IMG/VR virus record: IMGVR_UViG_2534681999_000017
DNA: 36,916 nt
Strand: one strand, 5' to 3'
Source of the DNA: a virus
Taxonomy: Duplodnaviria > Heunggongvirae > Uroviricota > Caudoviricetes
Positions 31,851 through 36,916 of this stretch are shown here, in pieces. The notes under the pieces are model-generated. The model was not told the DNA's origin. It saw nothing but the letters and a program-made list of their open reading frames with translations, and searched no databases. Every line of letters begins with the position of its first letter. Positions within the stretch are counted from its first letter, which is position 1. A program made the position numbers and the translations under genes.

Positions 31851-32078
31851 TTAGCTGACTTGTTTCGCACCAACAGAACGGCATATTCCGCTGTAAACGT
31901 CTGTCGCACCTTCGCGATCAAGTCCGGCAGATATCACCATTCGTGTGCGGTCATTAAATTCAAAAAGTAAATCGCCACATTCTTTATTTTCGGCCAGTGA
32001 AATCACCTTCACGTTATCGAAATTAACCAGGTAAAAGCGTCCGTAAATATCAGGAATATAAAATACCGCCATAATCAC
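31851..32078 (-). CDS. Hypothetical small early protein (positional equivalent of Mu kil region)
   Basis: 75 aa immediately downstream of B; assignment by position only. Confidence 0.35.
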   Translation of the reverse strand: MIMAVFYIPDIYGRFYLVNFDNVKVISLAENKECGDLLFEFNDRTRMVISAGLDREGATDVYSGICRSVGAKQVS

Positions 32079-33007
32079 ACCTGTGAGAGTAATTCAGGGT
32101 TGGTATAAACCTCTTTAAAGGCCGCATTAATATGTTTTTCTGTCAGCGCCGCACCTTCACCGCTGGCGGTGAGCCACGCCTGGTTAAGCGTATGTGTCAG
32201 AACGCGTAACGCTCCCGGCTTTTCAGCGATAGCCTGCATGACGGCCAGCTCGGCCTCACCACTGATACCCCATGCCCTGGCAATGGCCAGCACATCCGCC
32301 TTTTTGGCCTTGCGAAGTTGTTTTGTACGGGCAAGACGGCTGAACAGGCGCGATAAATCATCAAAGGCGCGGCGTCCACCTTTAAACAATCCGCGCGGGT
32401 TACCAATAAGCACCATCCCGATCCCCGTGGCGTCCTGAATTGCCCGGAGTTGCTCCAGACCGTCAATACCAAGATGATCCGCCTCATCCACAATCACTAG
32501 TCCACGCGTTCCCATCAGGCGACGGCGGATGGCGCGGGATAATGCCCCTTTGTTCGCGCGGGTGTAATCAATCCCCAGCGCATCGGCCAGCTCCAGCAGA
32601 CACTCCGTGACGCTGGAGTGCGCGGGTGACAGGGTGATCATCCAGGTGTTTGGTTGCTCCTGGCAGTAATTACGGGCGGTGGCCGTTTTACCTACCCCCG
32701 GCACGCCCACAATGACGTTAATACAGCCCATCAGGCGAACCGCCTGAAACAGTGCGCGCAGCTCCTGAACTGTCTGCGTTTCCACAAACTGCGGCGGTTC
32801 CGGCAGTGCGCTTTGTTTATTCCAGTTCTCATACCAGGAACGCAGGGAAGCAGCCACAGCGGCGTTATCGCCTTTATATTTCCCCTTGCGGAAAGCCGAT
32901 AATGTGCCGTCGGAAATTCCCGCCTCTCTGGCGATGGCATACTGCGTCAGTACGCCGCCATCAATAAGTTCATCAATGGTCTTGATTACATCGTTAATAT
33001 CAGTCAT
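32075..33007 (-). CDS. B: MuB-like AAA+ target-DNA activator / transposition ATPase
   Basis: 310 aa, N-terminal HTH and Walker A VGVPGVGKT, Walker B LVIVDEADHL; directly downstream of A. Confidence 0.9.
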   Translation of the reverse strand: MTDINDVIKTIDELIDGGVLTQYAIAREAGISDGTLSAFRKGKYKGDNAAVAASLRSWYENWNKQSALPEPPQFVETQTVQELRALFQAVRLMGCINVIVGVPGVGKTATARNYCQEQPNTWMITLSPAHSSVTECLLELADALGIDYTRANKGALSRAIRRRLMGTRGLVIVDEADHLGIDGLEQLRAIQDATGIGMVLIGNPRGLFKGGRRAFDDLSRLFSRLARTKQLRKAKKADVLAIARAWGISGEAELAVMQAIAEKPGALRVLTHTLNQAWLTASGEGAALTEKHINAAFKEVYTNPELLSQV

Positions 33008-33077: not shown

Positions 33078-35168
33078 TCAGGCCAGCGGGTCATTTTCTT
33101 TTAATTTCGCTTCGAGCAACTGCAATCCCCGCTGGAAATTGCGCTCGTATTCTTCATCAGGCTCATCATCAATGGCAGGTTGCTGAACGGCCACCGTATT
33201 ACCTACCGGGCGATAGATGTTTTCCAGCCAGGGCTCCTGCGGCTTGTGCTCCAGCACGTTGACAACCTCATCCTCGGCATCACGGATTTTTTCCTCTGCG
33301 CGTTTACGCATGCCTTTAAGGCGTTGCTGCTGTTTGTAGTATTCCGCGCTAACCGGGAAGGCTTCGCGTTTATTACCGTCCCATACCGCCTCGCAAATCA
33401 CGCTGCCATCCAGGCGACGTACGGTAATTCGTTCGGCATCATGAATGTCATAGCTGATAAGCACCTTGCGGCCATGCTCATCACGCAGCTCGGGCGCGTA
33501 GTAAATATTATTCAGCCAGCGTATTTCACAGCGTCTTACAGGGCGTTCCACCATCGGCCGGAACATGTCCCGCAATTCCACATCGGACAGCCATTCAATT
33601 TCCGTGTCCTCTTCCGCCAGGCGTTTTTTTCTGAACTCCGCCGGGCTGTAATGCTTGCCGTTCGGCTTCACCGGTAATTCATCGTGCGGCCGGTTGTTGT
33701 ACCACTCAACACCATCACGAATGGCATCAATCAGTTCAGACCAGGACGGTAAATCACGCATCGCTGACTGCTGCCGGGCGTTCAGCCGTTTGCCCTGTTG
33801 CAGGGCAGTAAATGCCGAGCGTAAATCGCGGTTGGTTTTGCGTAACGTCTCGCGATCTGCACCTTTCCCGAAATAGGTGCGGTATTTACGGGCTATGCGC
33901 ATCGGTAATGTGCGGTTAAGCCGTTCGATAATGCCTCGTCCCTGCGGATTACCGGCAATCCCGGTCGGGTGATTAATCCCCAGTCGCGGCAGTATCCCCA
34001 CAACCTCCTTATCCAGGATGTCGGCGGTTTCCCCGGAGCCGTTATCCGAGTAATACAGAAACGGTTTGCCGTGATGGCGAATGCCGTGCTGTATGGCACC
34101 GGCTACGGCGAAAACATTTTCAGCCAGGTCAAGGCTCCAGCCCACCACAAAGCGCGTGCCACCGTCGATAACAAAGGTCACTTCCGGTGCAAATGGCCGA
34201 CCGTGAACCGGGTGTGCGCATTTCAGCTTCATGCCGTGACCGTCACCAATCCAGACATAATTCACCGGCATTCTGGACCAGTCGCGGCGCGTGAATCCCT
34301 CAAGCTGGCGGTATTCACTGCCGGTCACCCGGCCTTTTTGTTTCACCACTTCCGGCAGTTTCTTCATTGCGCGGCGAATGGTGTCATAAGACGGCATGAT
34401 ATCGAGCATATAAGGCTCATCAGCGTGCCGGTGCTGCCATTCAGCGACAAAATCCTCGTAAGCCTCGGTCATTGGTCGGCCGTTTGACTGGCGATACTGC
34501 GCCAGAAATTCGGGCAGCCAGTTAATATCTTCGGCTTTTATTTCCTGGCGTTTACCCGGTGCCAGTAAAAGCAGGCGTTCAGCGGCGTTCTGTGCCTTGT
34601 TAAAGGCCGCAATCCATCGCTTCAGCGTGATTTCACTCAACGCACGGCTGTTTCCCTTTTTGGCGTTCGCCGTCTCAACCATTGCCACAATGCGCTCGTC
34701 CAGCTGTGAACGTGCCAGGTTGTCAACGATAAACCGGATAGCCTTCGCGCAGCTGAAACCGGGTTGTTGCGCGACTTTCATCACTTCGCTGACGATCGCG
34801 ATTCGTGCATCAGCCACCTGGCGCTGGTTTTCAGTCAGGGCATTGAGGCGTTCGACCATCAGTTGTGGTGATCCGCGATATGCCTCCACCGCATCAACCA
34901 CGTCAGATGAGCGTCTGGCCTTTGTCACCACCGGAGCCGGTGATTCATCGGCTTTTTGCGTCATCAGTTGCAGGGCATAACGTTCACGTAATGCCTGCTG
35001 CGTCACTTCAGGTAAACAGTCGATGCTGTATTCAGTTGCTTTAGAGCCTGAGCGACGACGGGAACAACAGCTTTTCCCTTGTACGTAACGTTGTAATGCC
35101 TGGCGAATACCTTTTGTTGTAGCAGGCATTCCGGGCGCGCCAATCAGTTCTTTTGCAATGACATACAT
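33078..35168 (-). CDS. A: MuA-like DDE transposase
   Basis: 696 aa; rve-type catalytic core (…WIGDGHGMKLK…YYSDNGSG…IERLNRTLP…), downstream of ner and upstream of B. Confidence 0.92.
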   Translation of the reverse strand: MYVIAKELIGAPGMPATTKGIRQALQRYVQGKSCCSRRRSGSKATEYSIDCLPEVTQQALRERYALQLMTQKADESPAPVVTKARRSSDVVDAVEAYRGSPQLMVERLNALTENQRQVADARIAIVSEVMKVAQQPGFSCAKAIRFIVDNLARSQLDERIVAMVETANAKKGNSRALSEITLKRWIAAFNKAQNAAERLLLLAPGKRQEIKAEDINWLPEFLAQYRQSNGRPMTEAYEDFVAEWQHRHADEPYMLDIMPSYDTIRRAMKKLPEVVKQKGRVTGSEYRQLEGFTRRDWSRMPVNYVWIGDGHGMKLKCAHPVHGRPFAPEVTFVIDGGTRFVVGWSLDLAENVFAVAGAIQHGIRHHGKPFLYYSDNGSGETADILDKEVVGILPRLGINHPTGIAGNPQGRGIIERLNRTLPMRIARKYRTYFGKGADRETLRKTNRDLRSAFTALQQGKRLNARQQSAMRDLPSWSELIDAIRDGVEWYNNRPHDELPVKPNGKHYSPAEFRKKRLAEEDTEIEWLSDVELRDMFRPMVERPVRRCEIRWLNNIYYAPELRDEHGRKVLISYDIHDAERITVRRLDGSVICEAVWDGNKREAFPVSAEYYKQQQRLKGMRKRAEEKIRDAEDEVVNVLEHKPQEPWLENIYRPVGNTVAVQQPAIDDEPDEEYERNFQRGLQLLEAKLKENDPLA

Positions 35169-35169
35169 A

Positions 35170-35418
35170 TCATGACGCCTTTCTCATATAGCTCTTAACC
35201 TGGTATCTACTGGGCCAGATTTCTTCAGGCGATACCCCAAGAGCATCAGCAATTATTTGCTGATACGGTCGGCAAGGAGTACGTAATACGCTTTTCAGCG
35301 AATCCCTGCTGTAACCAGCCTTTAAAGATAAAGAGCGCAGTGATAAGCCAGCCATGTGTAAGCGCGCCTTGATGATTTCAGGCGGCCAATCGTGATCTGA
35401 AACTTCTCTTCTACTCAT
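35170..35418 (-). CDS. ner: Ner-like DNA-binding regulator (Ner/Nlp family)
   Basis: 82 aa; …IIKARLHMAGLSLRSLSLKAGYSRDSLKSVL…QQIIADALGVSPEEIWPSRYQ matches Mu Ner …IIANALETKPEVIWPSRYQ. Confidence 0.85.
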   Translation of the reverse strand: MSRREVSDHDWPPEIIKARLHMAGLSLRSLSLKAGYSRDSLKSVLRTPCRPYQQIIADALGVSPEEIWPSRYQVKSYMRKAS

Positions 35419-35608
35419 ACTTCCTCTATTCTAAAAAGTTACCCGCGCGGATATTCGTGCGGATATCTGCACGGGTAAATAATGCATCACCAAAAATACC
35501 AAATCAAGGTATTTTTGGTATTTTGGCTAATTTTTGCTTTTATCCTTATTTTTCAATTGGATAAATAGAAAGAAACCTTTCCTTAGAAAAGCACCAAGAG
35601 GTATCTTT
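35419..35608. promoter_or_regulatory. Divergent early promoter / operator region between ner and the repressor
   Basis: Perfect 11-bp palindrome CCAAAAATACC-N7-GGTATTTTTGG (35490-35518), direct repeats GCGGATAT x2 and inverted TTACCCG…CGGGTAA. Confidence 0.6.
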
Positions 35609-36139
35609 ATGTCGCAGGGAAAAGAACCTGTTATTGAACGTATTGGAATGCTTACAAAGCGCTACCCTTCAAGAAGTGCAGCTGCCAGAGCGTGGGGAAT
35701 CAATATCAACACATTAAACAGCTATTTCAAGGGAGGACAAACACAACCAGCCCCCAGAGAAAGTATCCTTATACGAATTTCTGAAAGTGAAGGAGTTAGT
35801 CTTGAGTGGCTTAAAGAGGGCAAGGGTGAATCACCAAACGATGTTGGTATTTGTGGTAATTTTGGTTGTTCTGGTGATAAGGGAGATCAACTTACACAGA
35901 TGCTTTCATTCCTTACGAAAGACGAACGAGAACAGTTAACCAATCTCCTTGCTCGCAAAGGTGTAGAGACGGTTCTGACACTGCTGGATAAAGAAAACCA
36001 GGATTTATTACAACTAGAAGGCAGGAAGCGCCTGGCTGCGTTGATGATTGTAGATATGCCAGACGATTGCGTCAGAGAGATTTTGGAAAAAACCGAGACA
36101 AGTAGGCAATCAAATCCGGTAGAATCTAAAGCGGGTTAG
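35609..36139 (+). CDS. Prophage repressor (Mu c position), HTH type
   Basis: ATG at 35609 with AAGAGG upstream (track start at 35534 is over-extended); N-terminal HTH …SAAARAWGININTLNSYFKG…; divergent from ner. Confidence 0.7.
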   Translation: MSQGKEPVIERIGMLTKRYPSRSAAARAWGININTLNSYFKGGQTQPAPRESILIRISESEGVSLEWLKEGKGESPNDVGICGNFGCSGDKGDQLTQMLSFLTKDEREQLTNLLARKGVETVLTLLDKENQDLLQLEGRKRLAALMIVDMPDDCVREILEKTETSRQSNPVESKAG

Positions 36140-36209
36140 TTTGGCGAGGCTGGCCCGTATGTTAGTTGCCATATAGATTTAATGAAGTTTTAAACGCTTT
36201 AAAAAGTTG

Positions 36210-36389
36210 AGATCGCAGTATCAAAAGTTTTGCCGATTTTAGAATAAACGATTAATTATTGCACAATCGGTATCAAATAGACTTTAAGCGCTCATCCAGA
36301 CATCACCTGTTTTATTTCAGTATCTTACAGGTGATTTCACCTCCTTTCACTAAAACCCTCGTTGGTATCAAATGATTCACCTGGTTACA
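36210..36389. mobile_element. Prophage c-side terminus with transposase-binding repeats
   Basis: Three direct copies of GTATCAAA(A/T) at 36219, 36270 and 36365; element ends …GGTTACA at 36389, which is 5'-TG on the inward-reading strand; 9-bp inverted repeat ATCACCTGT/ACAGGTGAT at 36302-36335. Confidence 0.6.
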
Positions 36390-36916
36390 CGCGCCAGGCG
36401 CACATAAAAGGGAATTCGCACAATAGCAATAGCCAGCATGGCGTTAAACAAACTCGGCCCGAGAGCGGCAGCCAGTGCCATTGTCAGTACCAACGAAGGA
36501 ATCGACAGCATAATGTCCATGATGCGCATGATGATGGCGTCTGCGCGTCCGCCAAGCACACCGGATAGACATCCGAGTAGCGAACCAATCATACCCGCAA
36601 TGGCAACCACGACTAATCCGGCGAGAATTGATTGCTGACTGCCGACCAGTACGCGGCTGAACAGATCGCGTCCCACTTCATCGGTGCCAAACCAGTGCGC
36701 CGCAGAAGGCGGCAAAAGGCGGGCGGTTAAATCAATGGCGTTGGGATCATGCGTCGCCAGCCACGGTGAAAAAATCATCATCAGTAGCATTAATACAATG
36801 ATGACTGCGCCGGTCACGGTGAGCGGACTGCCTTTCAGCATCCATACCAGTTTTGCACCGTTAAATCGCGTTTGTTTTTGTGGGCGTACGGCGGACGTTT
36901 CCTCGCTTAGCATCAT
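36377..36916 (-). pseudogene. Host DppC/OppC-family ABC transporter permease, 3'-truncated by prophage insertion
   Basis: 179 aa covering the N-terminal TM region and …RIPFYVRLAR, then VTR-stop from phage-end sequence; full-length family members are about 300 aa. Confidence 0.8.

Follow-up and report, generated by a model that had tools for sequence, protein, structure and literature searches.

The 190 bp that separate the ner gene from the divergently oriented repressor gene of a Mu-like E. coli prophage (positions 35419-35608 of IMG/VR virus record IMGVR_UViG_2534681999_000017, a 36,916-nucleotide stretch of DNA that is here called the window) probably form its early control region, or immunity switch. 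Two sets of inverted repeats are found in this gap. Comparison with 40 relatives supports the assignment of a GC-rich 40-bp dyad next to ner to the Ner protein, and of an AT-rich 12-bp palindrome on the predicted early promoter (Pe) to the repressor, while neither set seems to follow the transposase. A further cluster of operator-like motifs inside the repressor gene is a probable auxiliary part of the same switch. The initial annotation, made from the letters of the window, had expected repressor and Ner sites at a lysis-lysogeny switch and had named no pairing between sites and proteins; the comparison supports that expectation and adds the pairing.

Repeat anatomy and the probable partners of the two repeat sets

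The two putative operators and the genes that flank them are as follows.

35439-35478, no strand assigned: putative Ner operator, a 40-bp dyad array of three overlapping palindromes, at a constant distance from ner and following the Ner type
35486-35537, no strand assigned: putative primary repressor operator, the palindrome with half-site copies, following the helix-turn-helix (HTH) type of the repressor
35170-35418, minus strand: ner gene, 82 amino acids, first of the early operon ner-A-B (PF13693 HTH_35, E 2.5e-19)
35418-35416, minus strand: ner start codon
35420-35426, minus strand: ner ribosome-binding site GAGGAAG, read from the sequence
35609-36139, plus strand: repressor gene, 176 amino acids, ATG at 35609 (PHROG 3037, E 1e-62)

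The gap between ner and the repressor gene is thus exactly 35419-35608. The palindrome consists of two perfect 12-bp arms, ACCAAAAATACC (35489-35500) and GGTATTTTTGGT (35508-35519), with a 7-bp spacer. It had been described with 11-bp arms and this same spacer; the palindrome and its spacer are present, but arms of 11 bp would give a spacer of 9 bp. A second register can also be read (AAAATACCAAA, 10 bp, TTTGGTATTTT). Two further half-site copies, GGTATTTTGGCT (35517-35528) and AATTTTTGC (35529-35537), complete the putative primary operator.

The tandem repeat GCGGATAT does occur twice (35446-35453 and 35458-35465), but its copies stand 12 bp apart and do not abut. The outer 7-bp inverted repeat (TTACCCG at 35439-35445 and CGGGTAA at 35472-35478) is likewise there, but it is not separate from the GCGGATAT copies, both being parts of one 40-bp dyad (35439-35478) whose arms, 35439-35457 and 35460-35478, are complementary at 16 of 19 positions. 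This dyad is better put as three overlapping matches to WTAYCYG-NN-CRGRTAW, at 35439, 35451 and 35463, with 0, 1 and 0 mismatches and a 12-bp period. It also reads as a tandem repeat in the window phage because GATATC is self-complementary; its counterpart in the relatives, GGATAACCG..CGGTTATCC, is plainly inverted.

These repeats are real and beyond chance. A perfect inverted repeat of at least 12 bp appeared in one of 5000 dinucleotide-preserving shuffles of the 190 bp (P~0.0002), the dyad alone has P~0.007, and two separate inverted repeats of such quality were seen in none of 1500 shuffles. Elsewhere in the 36.9-kb window, a perfect inverted repeat of this length (at least 12 bp) is seen at a single locus, CCGGAAACTTTA at 1871-1898, with 12-bp arms and a 4-nt spacer.

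For the relatives, BLAST and protein-guided scans gave 52 loci, from which 40 control regions were kept as non-redundant. Their sources are prophages of E. coli, Yersinia phage Tongde, Pseudomonas phage VW-6B, and contigs of Serratia, Sodalis, Pantoea, Izhakiella, Mixta, Kluyvera, Leminorella and Klebsiella. All those compared have an identical layout and a repressor of the same family, and both repeat sets are conserved in position, located on and just downstream of a positionally conserved Pe.

Natural exchanges of modules among these phages are what separates the two repeat sets. Six pairs of loci share one Ner or close variants of it (window/L004, window/L005, L009/L015, L001/L041, L017/L050 and L048/L047), with 88-100% Ner identity in the four pairs that could be scored, two of the six being pairs that could not. 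In these six pairs, intergenic positions 1-62, with the dyad and the -10 element, are 92-98% identical in DNA, and positions 63-125, with the palindrome, are 56-72% identical; the repressor HTH helices of the partners differ. In every case the recombination junction lies within the ~10 bp that part the dyad from the left arm of the palindrome. Within E. coli, at least three immunity types have 100% identical Ner and near-identical transposase N-termini (that of the window, SMN013SH2, which is L004, and STEC2018-607, which is L005), and STEC388 represents a fourth type, whose Ner is also different.

The converse is seen when repressor HTH types are compared by their HTH helix strings. The palindrome ATCAC[C/G]AAAAATACC-N7-GGTATTTTT[C/G]GTGAT goes with the repressor helix INTL(N/K)SY(F/Y), beside different Ner types and dyads, and in L009, L038 and L019 both of its arms carry the same C-to-G change. 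In most lineages an inverted repeat straddles the -35 of Pe, and its sequence follows the repressor HTH type.

In all lineages the centre of the dyad keeps a constant distance to the ner ATG, and 12-17 of 20 positions are symmetric. The dyad is built of inner GGATAAC-type and outer TTAYCYG-type symmetric blocks, parted by 3-4 bp that are not symmetric, and the inner half-sites change symmetrically between types (GGATAAC/GTTATCC versus GGATAT/ATATC). By eye, the three Ners of the GGATAT type have DWP for DWH and a Leu in helix 1 in common, three lineages being too few to build on. Separation from the transposase comes from L006, which has a transposase N-terminus 99% identical to that of L001, with 55% Ner identity and a different dyad, and which compared with L052 has 90% identity in Ner, 94% in the dyad and 37% in the transposase. 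These natural module swaps support the assignment of the dyad to Ner and of the palindrome to the repressor, with neither following the transposase.

The reverse assignment, with Ner on the AT-rich 12-bp palindrome at the -35 of Pe and the repressor on the GC-rich 40-bp dyad, has in its favor the geometry of the Ner operator of phage D108 (perfect 11-bp inverted repeats, 8-bp spacer), which is nearer to the 12-bp/7-bp palindrome than to the 40-bp array. It is nevertheless very improbable, given that the palindromes of the window, L004 and L005 differ despite 100% identical Ner, that the same palindrome is common to phages whose Ner is only 62-72% identical to that of the window and whose repressor HTH helix is the same, and that the dyad behaves oppositely to the palindrome in the swaps. 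Moreover, the D108 repeat adjoins ner, as the dyad does here, and copies of the palindrome motif that are specific to the immunity type lie within the repressor gene.

The predicted early promoter and its surroundings

The following promoter elements and accessory motif were predicted in the control region.

35507-35502, minus strand: predicted Pe -35, TTGATT, inside the 7-bp spacer of the palindrome (hexamer-matrix scan and relatives)
35484-35479, minus strand: predicted Pe -10, CATTAT (hexamer-matrix scan and relatives)
35523-35552, plus strand: candidate repressor promoter TTGGCT-18-TATTTT, back to back with Pe, low confidence (9.0 bits, hexamer-matrix scan)
35404-35432, plus strand: alternative repressor promoter TTCTCT-17-TATTCT, facing Pe, with its start near 35439, low confidence
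35551-35563, plus strand: tentative integration host factor (IHF)-like motif TTTCAATTGGATA, two mismatches to WATCAANNNNTTR (aligned position in relatives)

In the window, Pe reads TTGATT-17 bp-CATTAT, with a predicted start near 35472, within the right arm of the Ner array. In 39 of the 40 relatives, the hexamer-matrix scan places the edge of the -10 at ~58-66 nt from the ner ATG on its upstream side, and at 61 nt in most. Pe is the top-scoring promoter match in 36 of the 40, with scores of up to 13.8 bits (for example TTGACT-17-TATGAT), and an independent pattern scan found TTGACT-17-TATGAT and TTGACA-17-TATGCT at the homologous site of L022 and L015. The core AATCAAGG at the -35 is kept across immunity types. 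The palindrome straddles this -35, with its left arm (ATCACCAAAAATACC, 35486-35500, in the extent given to the primary operator) in the promoter spacer and its right arm just upstream, while the dyad covers approximately +1 to +34. An IHF site at the spacer of the palindrome (AATCAAGGTATTT, one mismatch) was considered and rejected: the relatives keep TTGAC or TTGAT there, which is the -35 of Pe.

Inverted repeats on and after a promoter could also work as RNA or DNA hairpins, the dyad together with a conserved downstream T-run (AACTTTTTAG) being an attenuator in the ner leader, and the palindrome followed by ATTTTGG being a plus-strand intrinsic terminator. A pattern scan marks 35489-35519 as terminator-like, and also marks a stem and T-run inside the dyad of L022. 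The predicted RNA folds beat those of shuffled sequences, with z = -4.2 to -4.7 for the palindrome and -4.5 for the whole dyad, and with z = -2.2 for a leader that begins at the predicted start. Any dyad site, though, folds well on paper. For the dyad, the predicted Pe start lies inside it, so that the outer arm would not be in the RNA; its mismatches have no G-U bias on the ner-sense strand (45 versus 69 on the other strand), and the half-site sequence itself is conserved, beyond pairing. The palindrome lies upstream of the predicted Pe start, with no known plus-strand transcription into it, and was rejected as an intrinsic terminator: 4 of its 12 pairs are G-C, no transcription unit precedes it on that strand, and the relatives conserve neither spacer nor tail (their spacer is 4 to 24 nt, and they have no consistent T-run). 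A search of Rfam gave no family match at E<=1. Hairpins are thus an unlikely explanation of either repeat set, and the protein-binding sites proposed above are preferred.

Two promoters were considered for the repressor. The -35 of TTGGCT-18-TATTTT lies within a repressor half-site copy, and similar matches in the relatives scatter over ~25 bp; this candidate was not reported by the independent pattern scan of the window. The alternative, TTCTCT-17-TATTCT, is found at the same position in nearly all relatives and is weak (4.8-7.2 bits), and its conservation is confounded by the overlap with the ner ribosome-binding site and first codons. Its start would be at the edge of the Ner array, placing the dyad between two converging starts. 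Converging starts that flank a Ner site are also the arrangement in Mu.

Between the ner ribosome-binding site and the dyad, the block CTATYCTAAAAAGTTA (35427-35443) is nearly invariant across all lineages, a conservation that exceeds the demands of a Shine-Dalgarno sequence. It might extend the Ner site, enhance translation as an A/U-rich element, or supply the -10 and start for a repressor promoter that faces Pe. The aligned position of the IHF-like motif at 35551-35563 has at most one mismatch in 15 of 27 lineages, compared with 9% of control stretches, and two mismatches in the window itself. The only perfect IHF consensus of the window, TATCAACACATTA (35704-35716), is located midway between the primary and distal operators; it was rejected as a site since it is not conserved in most relatives and lies in codons of the repressor HTH, and it is probably a coding by-product.

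The repressor of the relatives starts 9-12 codons further upstream (M-x-K-E-P-x-G-S-F...), in the region that corresponds to 35582-35608 of the window. Their ATG is CTT in the window and ATT in strain NCCP15648. With the aligned ATG lost, the former peptide region is in the window part of the 5' untranslated region, and the new start at 35609 has its own GAGG. In the relatives an inverted repeat, AAAAGAAC-N4-6-GTTCTTTT, is present in this upstream stretch; it resembles a further operator, or is a by-product of the codons for K-E-P/G-S-F. At the other end of the repressor gene, a terminator-like stem with a poor T-run, GCGGGTTAGTTTGGCGAGGCTGGCCCGT (36131-36158), lies across the stop codon and could terminate the transcript of the gene.

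The predicted repressor fold and a distal operator-like cluster

An AlphaFold model built with 41 sequences gives the repressor an N-terminal five-helix HTH domain, a disordered linker and a C-terminal helical domain. The five helices span residues 8-70, with a predicted local distance difference test score of ~90, and the linker (residues 79-90) is disordered and of low confidence. Foldseek matched the N-terminal domain to P22 c2, 434 repressor and Cro, SinR, 186 CI and C.AhdI, with target template-modelling scores of 0.64-0.74 and root-mean-square deviations of 2.3-3.8 Å; the E-values are weak (0.007 to 0.5) because the query was the two-domain model. In profile searches the repressor had a weak match, to 434 repressor only. 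In Pfam it did not match PF02316, and HTH_3 and Phage_CI_repr were matched weakly. Most of its database relatives are labeled 'hypothetical', with occasional 'CI repressor' labels. The C-terminal 80 amino acids are weakly similar to Mu c (pairwise E 0.035); no peptidase S24 domain (the LexA/CI type of autocleavage) was matched on the repressor, and its C-terminal domain is helical and Mu c-like.

The N-terminus of the transposase, in contrast, is similar to the I-alpha domain of MuA (PF02316, E 1.9e-6), and its profile matches 1TNS (E 1.9e-6) and Mu c 1G4D (E 0.11). Compared with each other, the repressor and the transposase N-terminus reach an hhalign probability of 0.1%. On the model, the binding domain of the repressor is of the lambda/434 HTH type and not a homologue of that of Mu c. 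Five-helix HTH folds typically bind dyad-symmetric sites as dimers.

In Mu, one operator/enhancer is recognized by homologous domains of the repressor and of the transposase (PMC3145075). This pairing is not reproduced here, because the transposase N-terminus is unrelated to the repressor. The AT-rich repeats might still be, in addition or even mainly, a transposition enhancer to which the transposase binds through its N-terminal domain, like O1-O2 of Mu, a role that would be compatible with their use as a repressor operator. The MuA I-alpha-like character of that domain speaks for it, as does the half-site ACCAAAAA, which resembles TTACCAAAAAG in the Mu operator region, a sequence that we take to be a site for the Mu repressor and MuA. 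The distance of ~0.9 kb from the left end is also that of the Mu enhancer (PMC3145075). However, the transposase N-termini are 97% identical between the window and L004 and 99% between L001 and L041, and the palindromes of these pairs differ; since the binding domain of the repressor is unrelated to that of the transposase, the competition logic of Mu is not directly transferable. An enhancer role is doubtful, although less improbable than a hairpin.

Motifs of this operator recur within the repressor gene, outside the gap to which the initial annotation was confined.

35830-35878, no strand assigned: putative distal (auxiliary) repressor operator ATCACCAAA...GGTATTTGTGGTAATTTTGGT...TCTGGTGAT, inside the repressor gene

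The cluster lies ~350 bp from the centre of the primary operator and comprises, in order, ATCACCAAA, then GGTATTTGTGGT and GGTAATTTTGGT, then TCTGGTGAT. When the ~700 nt downstream are compared with the phage's own primary operator, the best match in most lineages is at this same relative position. The distal segment scores a mean of 12.2 against its own operator and 9.3 against foreign operators, and none of 20,000 permutations reached the observed value (P<5e-5). The same test found no mid-gene operator copies in the c genes of Mu and D108.

The cluster encodes the low-confidence linker, residues 79-90. The orientation of its motif is opposite in the clade of the window and in Tongde, where the encoded peptides are GICGNFG and NTKNTK, respectively; opposite motif orientation with a different peptide points to selection on the DNA. 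Co-variation of the distal cluster with the primary operator across immunity types suggests an auxiliary operator for looping. Precedents for looping or auxiliary sites are FL and FR of 186 (~300 bp from pR), OL-OR of lambda, and lac O2 and gal OI, which lie inside coding sequences.

A more far-reaching proposal, which we put forward only tentatively, is that an auxiliary operator in the linker codons has co-evolved with the primary one in every immunity type, with a loop of ~350 bp, closed by the repressor oligomer, over the region that encodes the DNA-binding domain and a linker peptide largely dictated by the DNA, in a repressor where a lambda-type HTH has replaced the winged helix of Mu c. 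If true, this replacement would uncouple repressor binding from the enhancer-binding domain of the transposase, and the Mu paradigm of an operator that is also the enhancer, with homologous competitors, would not apply.

The prophage and its probable switch among known phage systems

The window carries a Mu-like prophage, 99.8% identical over 1.29 kb to 'Mu-like phage' inserts in two records of Shiga toxin (Stx)-converting phages. Its early region has the layout of the Mu type, with the repressor divergent from an operon of ner, transposase and MuB genes near the left phage end; ner and the repressor gene lie upstream of the MuA-like and MuB-like genes, ~0.9 kb from that end. The product of ner is 43% identical to Mu Ner (E 3e-14). 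The remaining genes of the operon are the following.

33078-35168, minus strand: MuA-like transposase gene (Pfam Mu-transpos_C and HTH_Tnp_Mu_1)
32075-33007, minus strand: MuB-like gene (Pfam Phage-MuB_C)

By the match to the annotated Mu-like inserts, the phage ends at 36389 and its terminal sequence is ...GGTTACA. As the initial annotation had noted, the motifs of the control region differ from the repeats at the phage end: neither recurs in the terminal 250 bp, where other repeats are present. Within window positions 36218-36389 these are GTATCAAA at 36218 and 36365, TTCACCT at 36336 and 36376, and the inverted pair GACATCACCTGT / ACAGGTGATTTC at 36299-36338, presumably end-binding sites of the transposase. 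They are unlike both operator motifs, yet a TCACC core is common to them and the repressor half-site ATCACC. Beyond the junction, a minus-strand open reading frame of the host (36377-36916), whose sequence looks like that of an ABC-transporter permease, continues into the phage end, and the prophage seems to have truncated this gene by inserting within it.

This type of prophage is present in 195 of the 5,426 complete E. coli genomes searched, with two matching places in some genomes. Its carriers include many O157:H7 and other Shiga-toxin strains, and it is also found inserted inside Stx phages. The related Sakai prophage Sp18 is regarded as intact (PMC2669165).

The early regulatory region of Mu comprises the c repressor, the operators O1-O3, Pe, Pc, a Ner site and an IHF site, and is also its transposition enhancer. 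The Mu operator/enhancer layout is summarized in PMC3145075. The early region of the window phage has in common with Mu the gene order and orientation (repressor divergent from ner-A-B), the distance of ~0.9 kb to the left end, a Ner homologue with a Ner-type site between Pe and ner, T-rich repressor sites on Pe, a repressor whose C-terminal part is weakly Mu c-like, and, tentatively, an IHF-like motif that is conserved in relatives. It differs in the five-helix Xre/Cro-type HTH of the repressor, where Mu c has a winged helix shared with MuA, in a main operator that is a long perfect palindrome straddling the -35, where Mu has arrays of ~11-bp motifs, in the operator copy in the middle of the repressor gene, and in that the module-swap comparison gives no sign of the operator following the transposase.

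In D108, perfect 11-bp arms and an 8-bp spacer make up an inverted repeat that lies 25 bp upstream of ner and is reportedly the footprinted Ner operator. Both phages thus have a dyad-symmetric site directly upstream of ner (25-54 bp in D108 and 21-60 bp in the window) with room for several small Ner protomers. The sequences are unrelated (CCGTGAGCTAC versus WTAYCYG-NN-CRGRTAW), and the single interrupted palindrome of D108 contrasts with the three overlapping palindromes of 12-bp period in the window. The biochemistry of D108 Ner was reportedly described by Kukolj et al. 1989 and Benevides et al. 1994, and the protein is said to oligomerize on DNA. The second of these works is cited in PMC10434027.

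With the CI repressors of lambdoid phages, 434, P22 and 186, the window repressor would share a five-helix HTH, a dyad-symmetric operator on the lytic promoter, a recognition helix and operator that change together across immunity types, and distant auxiliary sites that loop. In contrast to them it lacks an S24 peptidase (RecA-cleavage) domain and has a Mu c-like C-terminal part instead, its half-site centres are 19 bp apart, its antagonist is Ner and not Cro, and the element is a transposable phage.

Several observations weigh against an immunity switch of this form. The 19 bp between the centres of the palindrome arms are wider than the ~10 bp of classical 434/P22 operators, and some lineages have at the -35 an inverted repeat that is short or has another spacing. 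Pe of the window is weak, matching the consensus at 8 of 12 positions, which is below the threshold of the pattern scan and was not reported by it, and the placement of the repressor promoter is uncertain, with two candidates. The operators adjoin the genes to which they are assigned, so that co-inheritance is partly linkage; it is informative all the same because the breakpoint recurs at one boundary. A-rich operators and Lys-rich linker codons could inflate the matches of the distal cluster, against which the test of own versus foreign operators argues. Binding, footprint or transcription-start data for this phage family were not found in the searchable literature.

With these points weighed, the switch would probably work as follows. 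Pe would fire leftward from ~35472 into ner-A-B. The repressor, predicted to combine a lambda/434-type HTH, a flexible linker and a Mu c-like helical oligomerization domain, would bind the operator that flanks the -35 of Pe (35486-35519) and the adjacent half-sites, occluding RNA polymerase and keeping lysogeny. The adjacent half-site copies overlap the -35 of a candidate repressor promoter, through which the repressor may regulate its own synthesis. The same oligomer could bind the cluster at 35830-35878, ~350 bp away, and so form a DNA loop that strengthens repression. Several Ner protomers on the 12-bp-periodic array (35439-35478, ~+1 to +34 of Pe) would throttle early transcription, and also any repressor transcript that came from the ner-proximal candidate promoter. 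In Mu and D108, Ner throttles both early and repressor transcription.

The comparison thus supports an ordinary but well-organized phage switch of the Mu type, with a repressor binding domain of the lambda type, a palindromic operator on the -35 of Pe and a periodic Ner array; the intragenic auxiliary operator is a probable part of it. For this family of prophages, the map of operators and promoters gives testable immunity groups and sites that can be mutated to lock or induce the prophage. Among the relatives, nature would supply matched repressor-operator pairs of at least five specificities, as well as Ner-operator pairs, in which the evolution of specificity can be followed. Mu-like phages, it would seem, do not all follow the Mu rule by which repressor and transposase share a DNA-binding domain.

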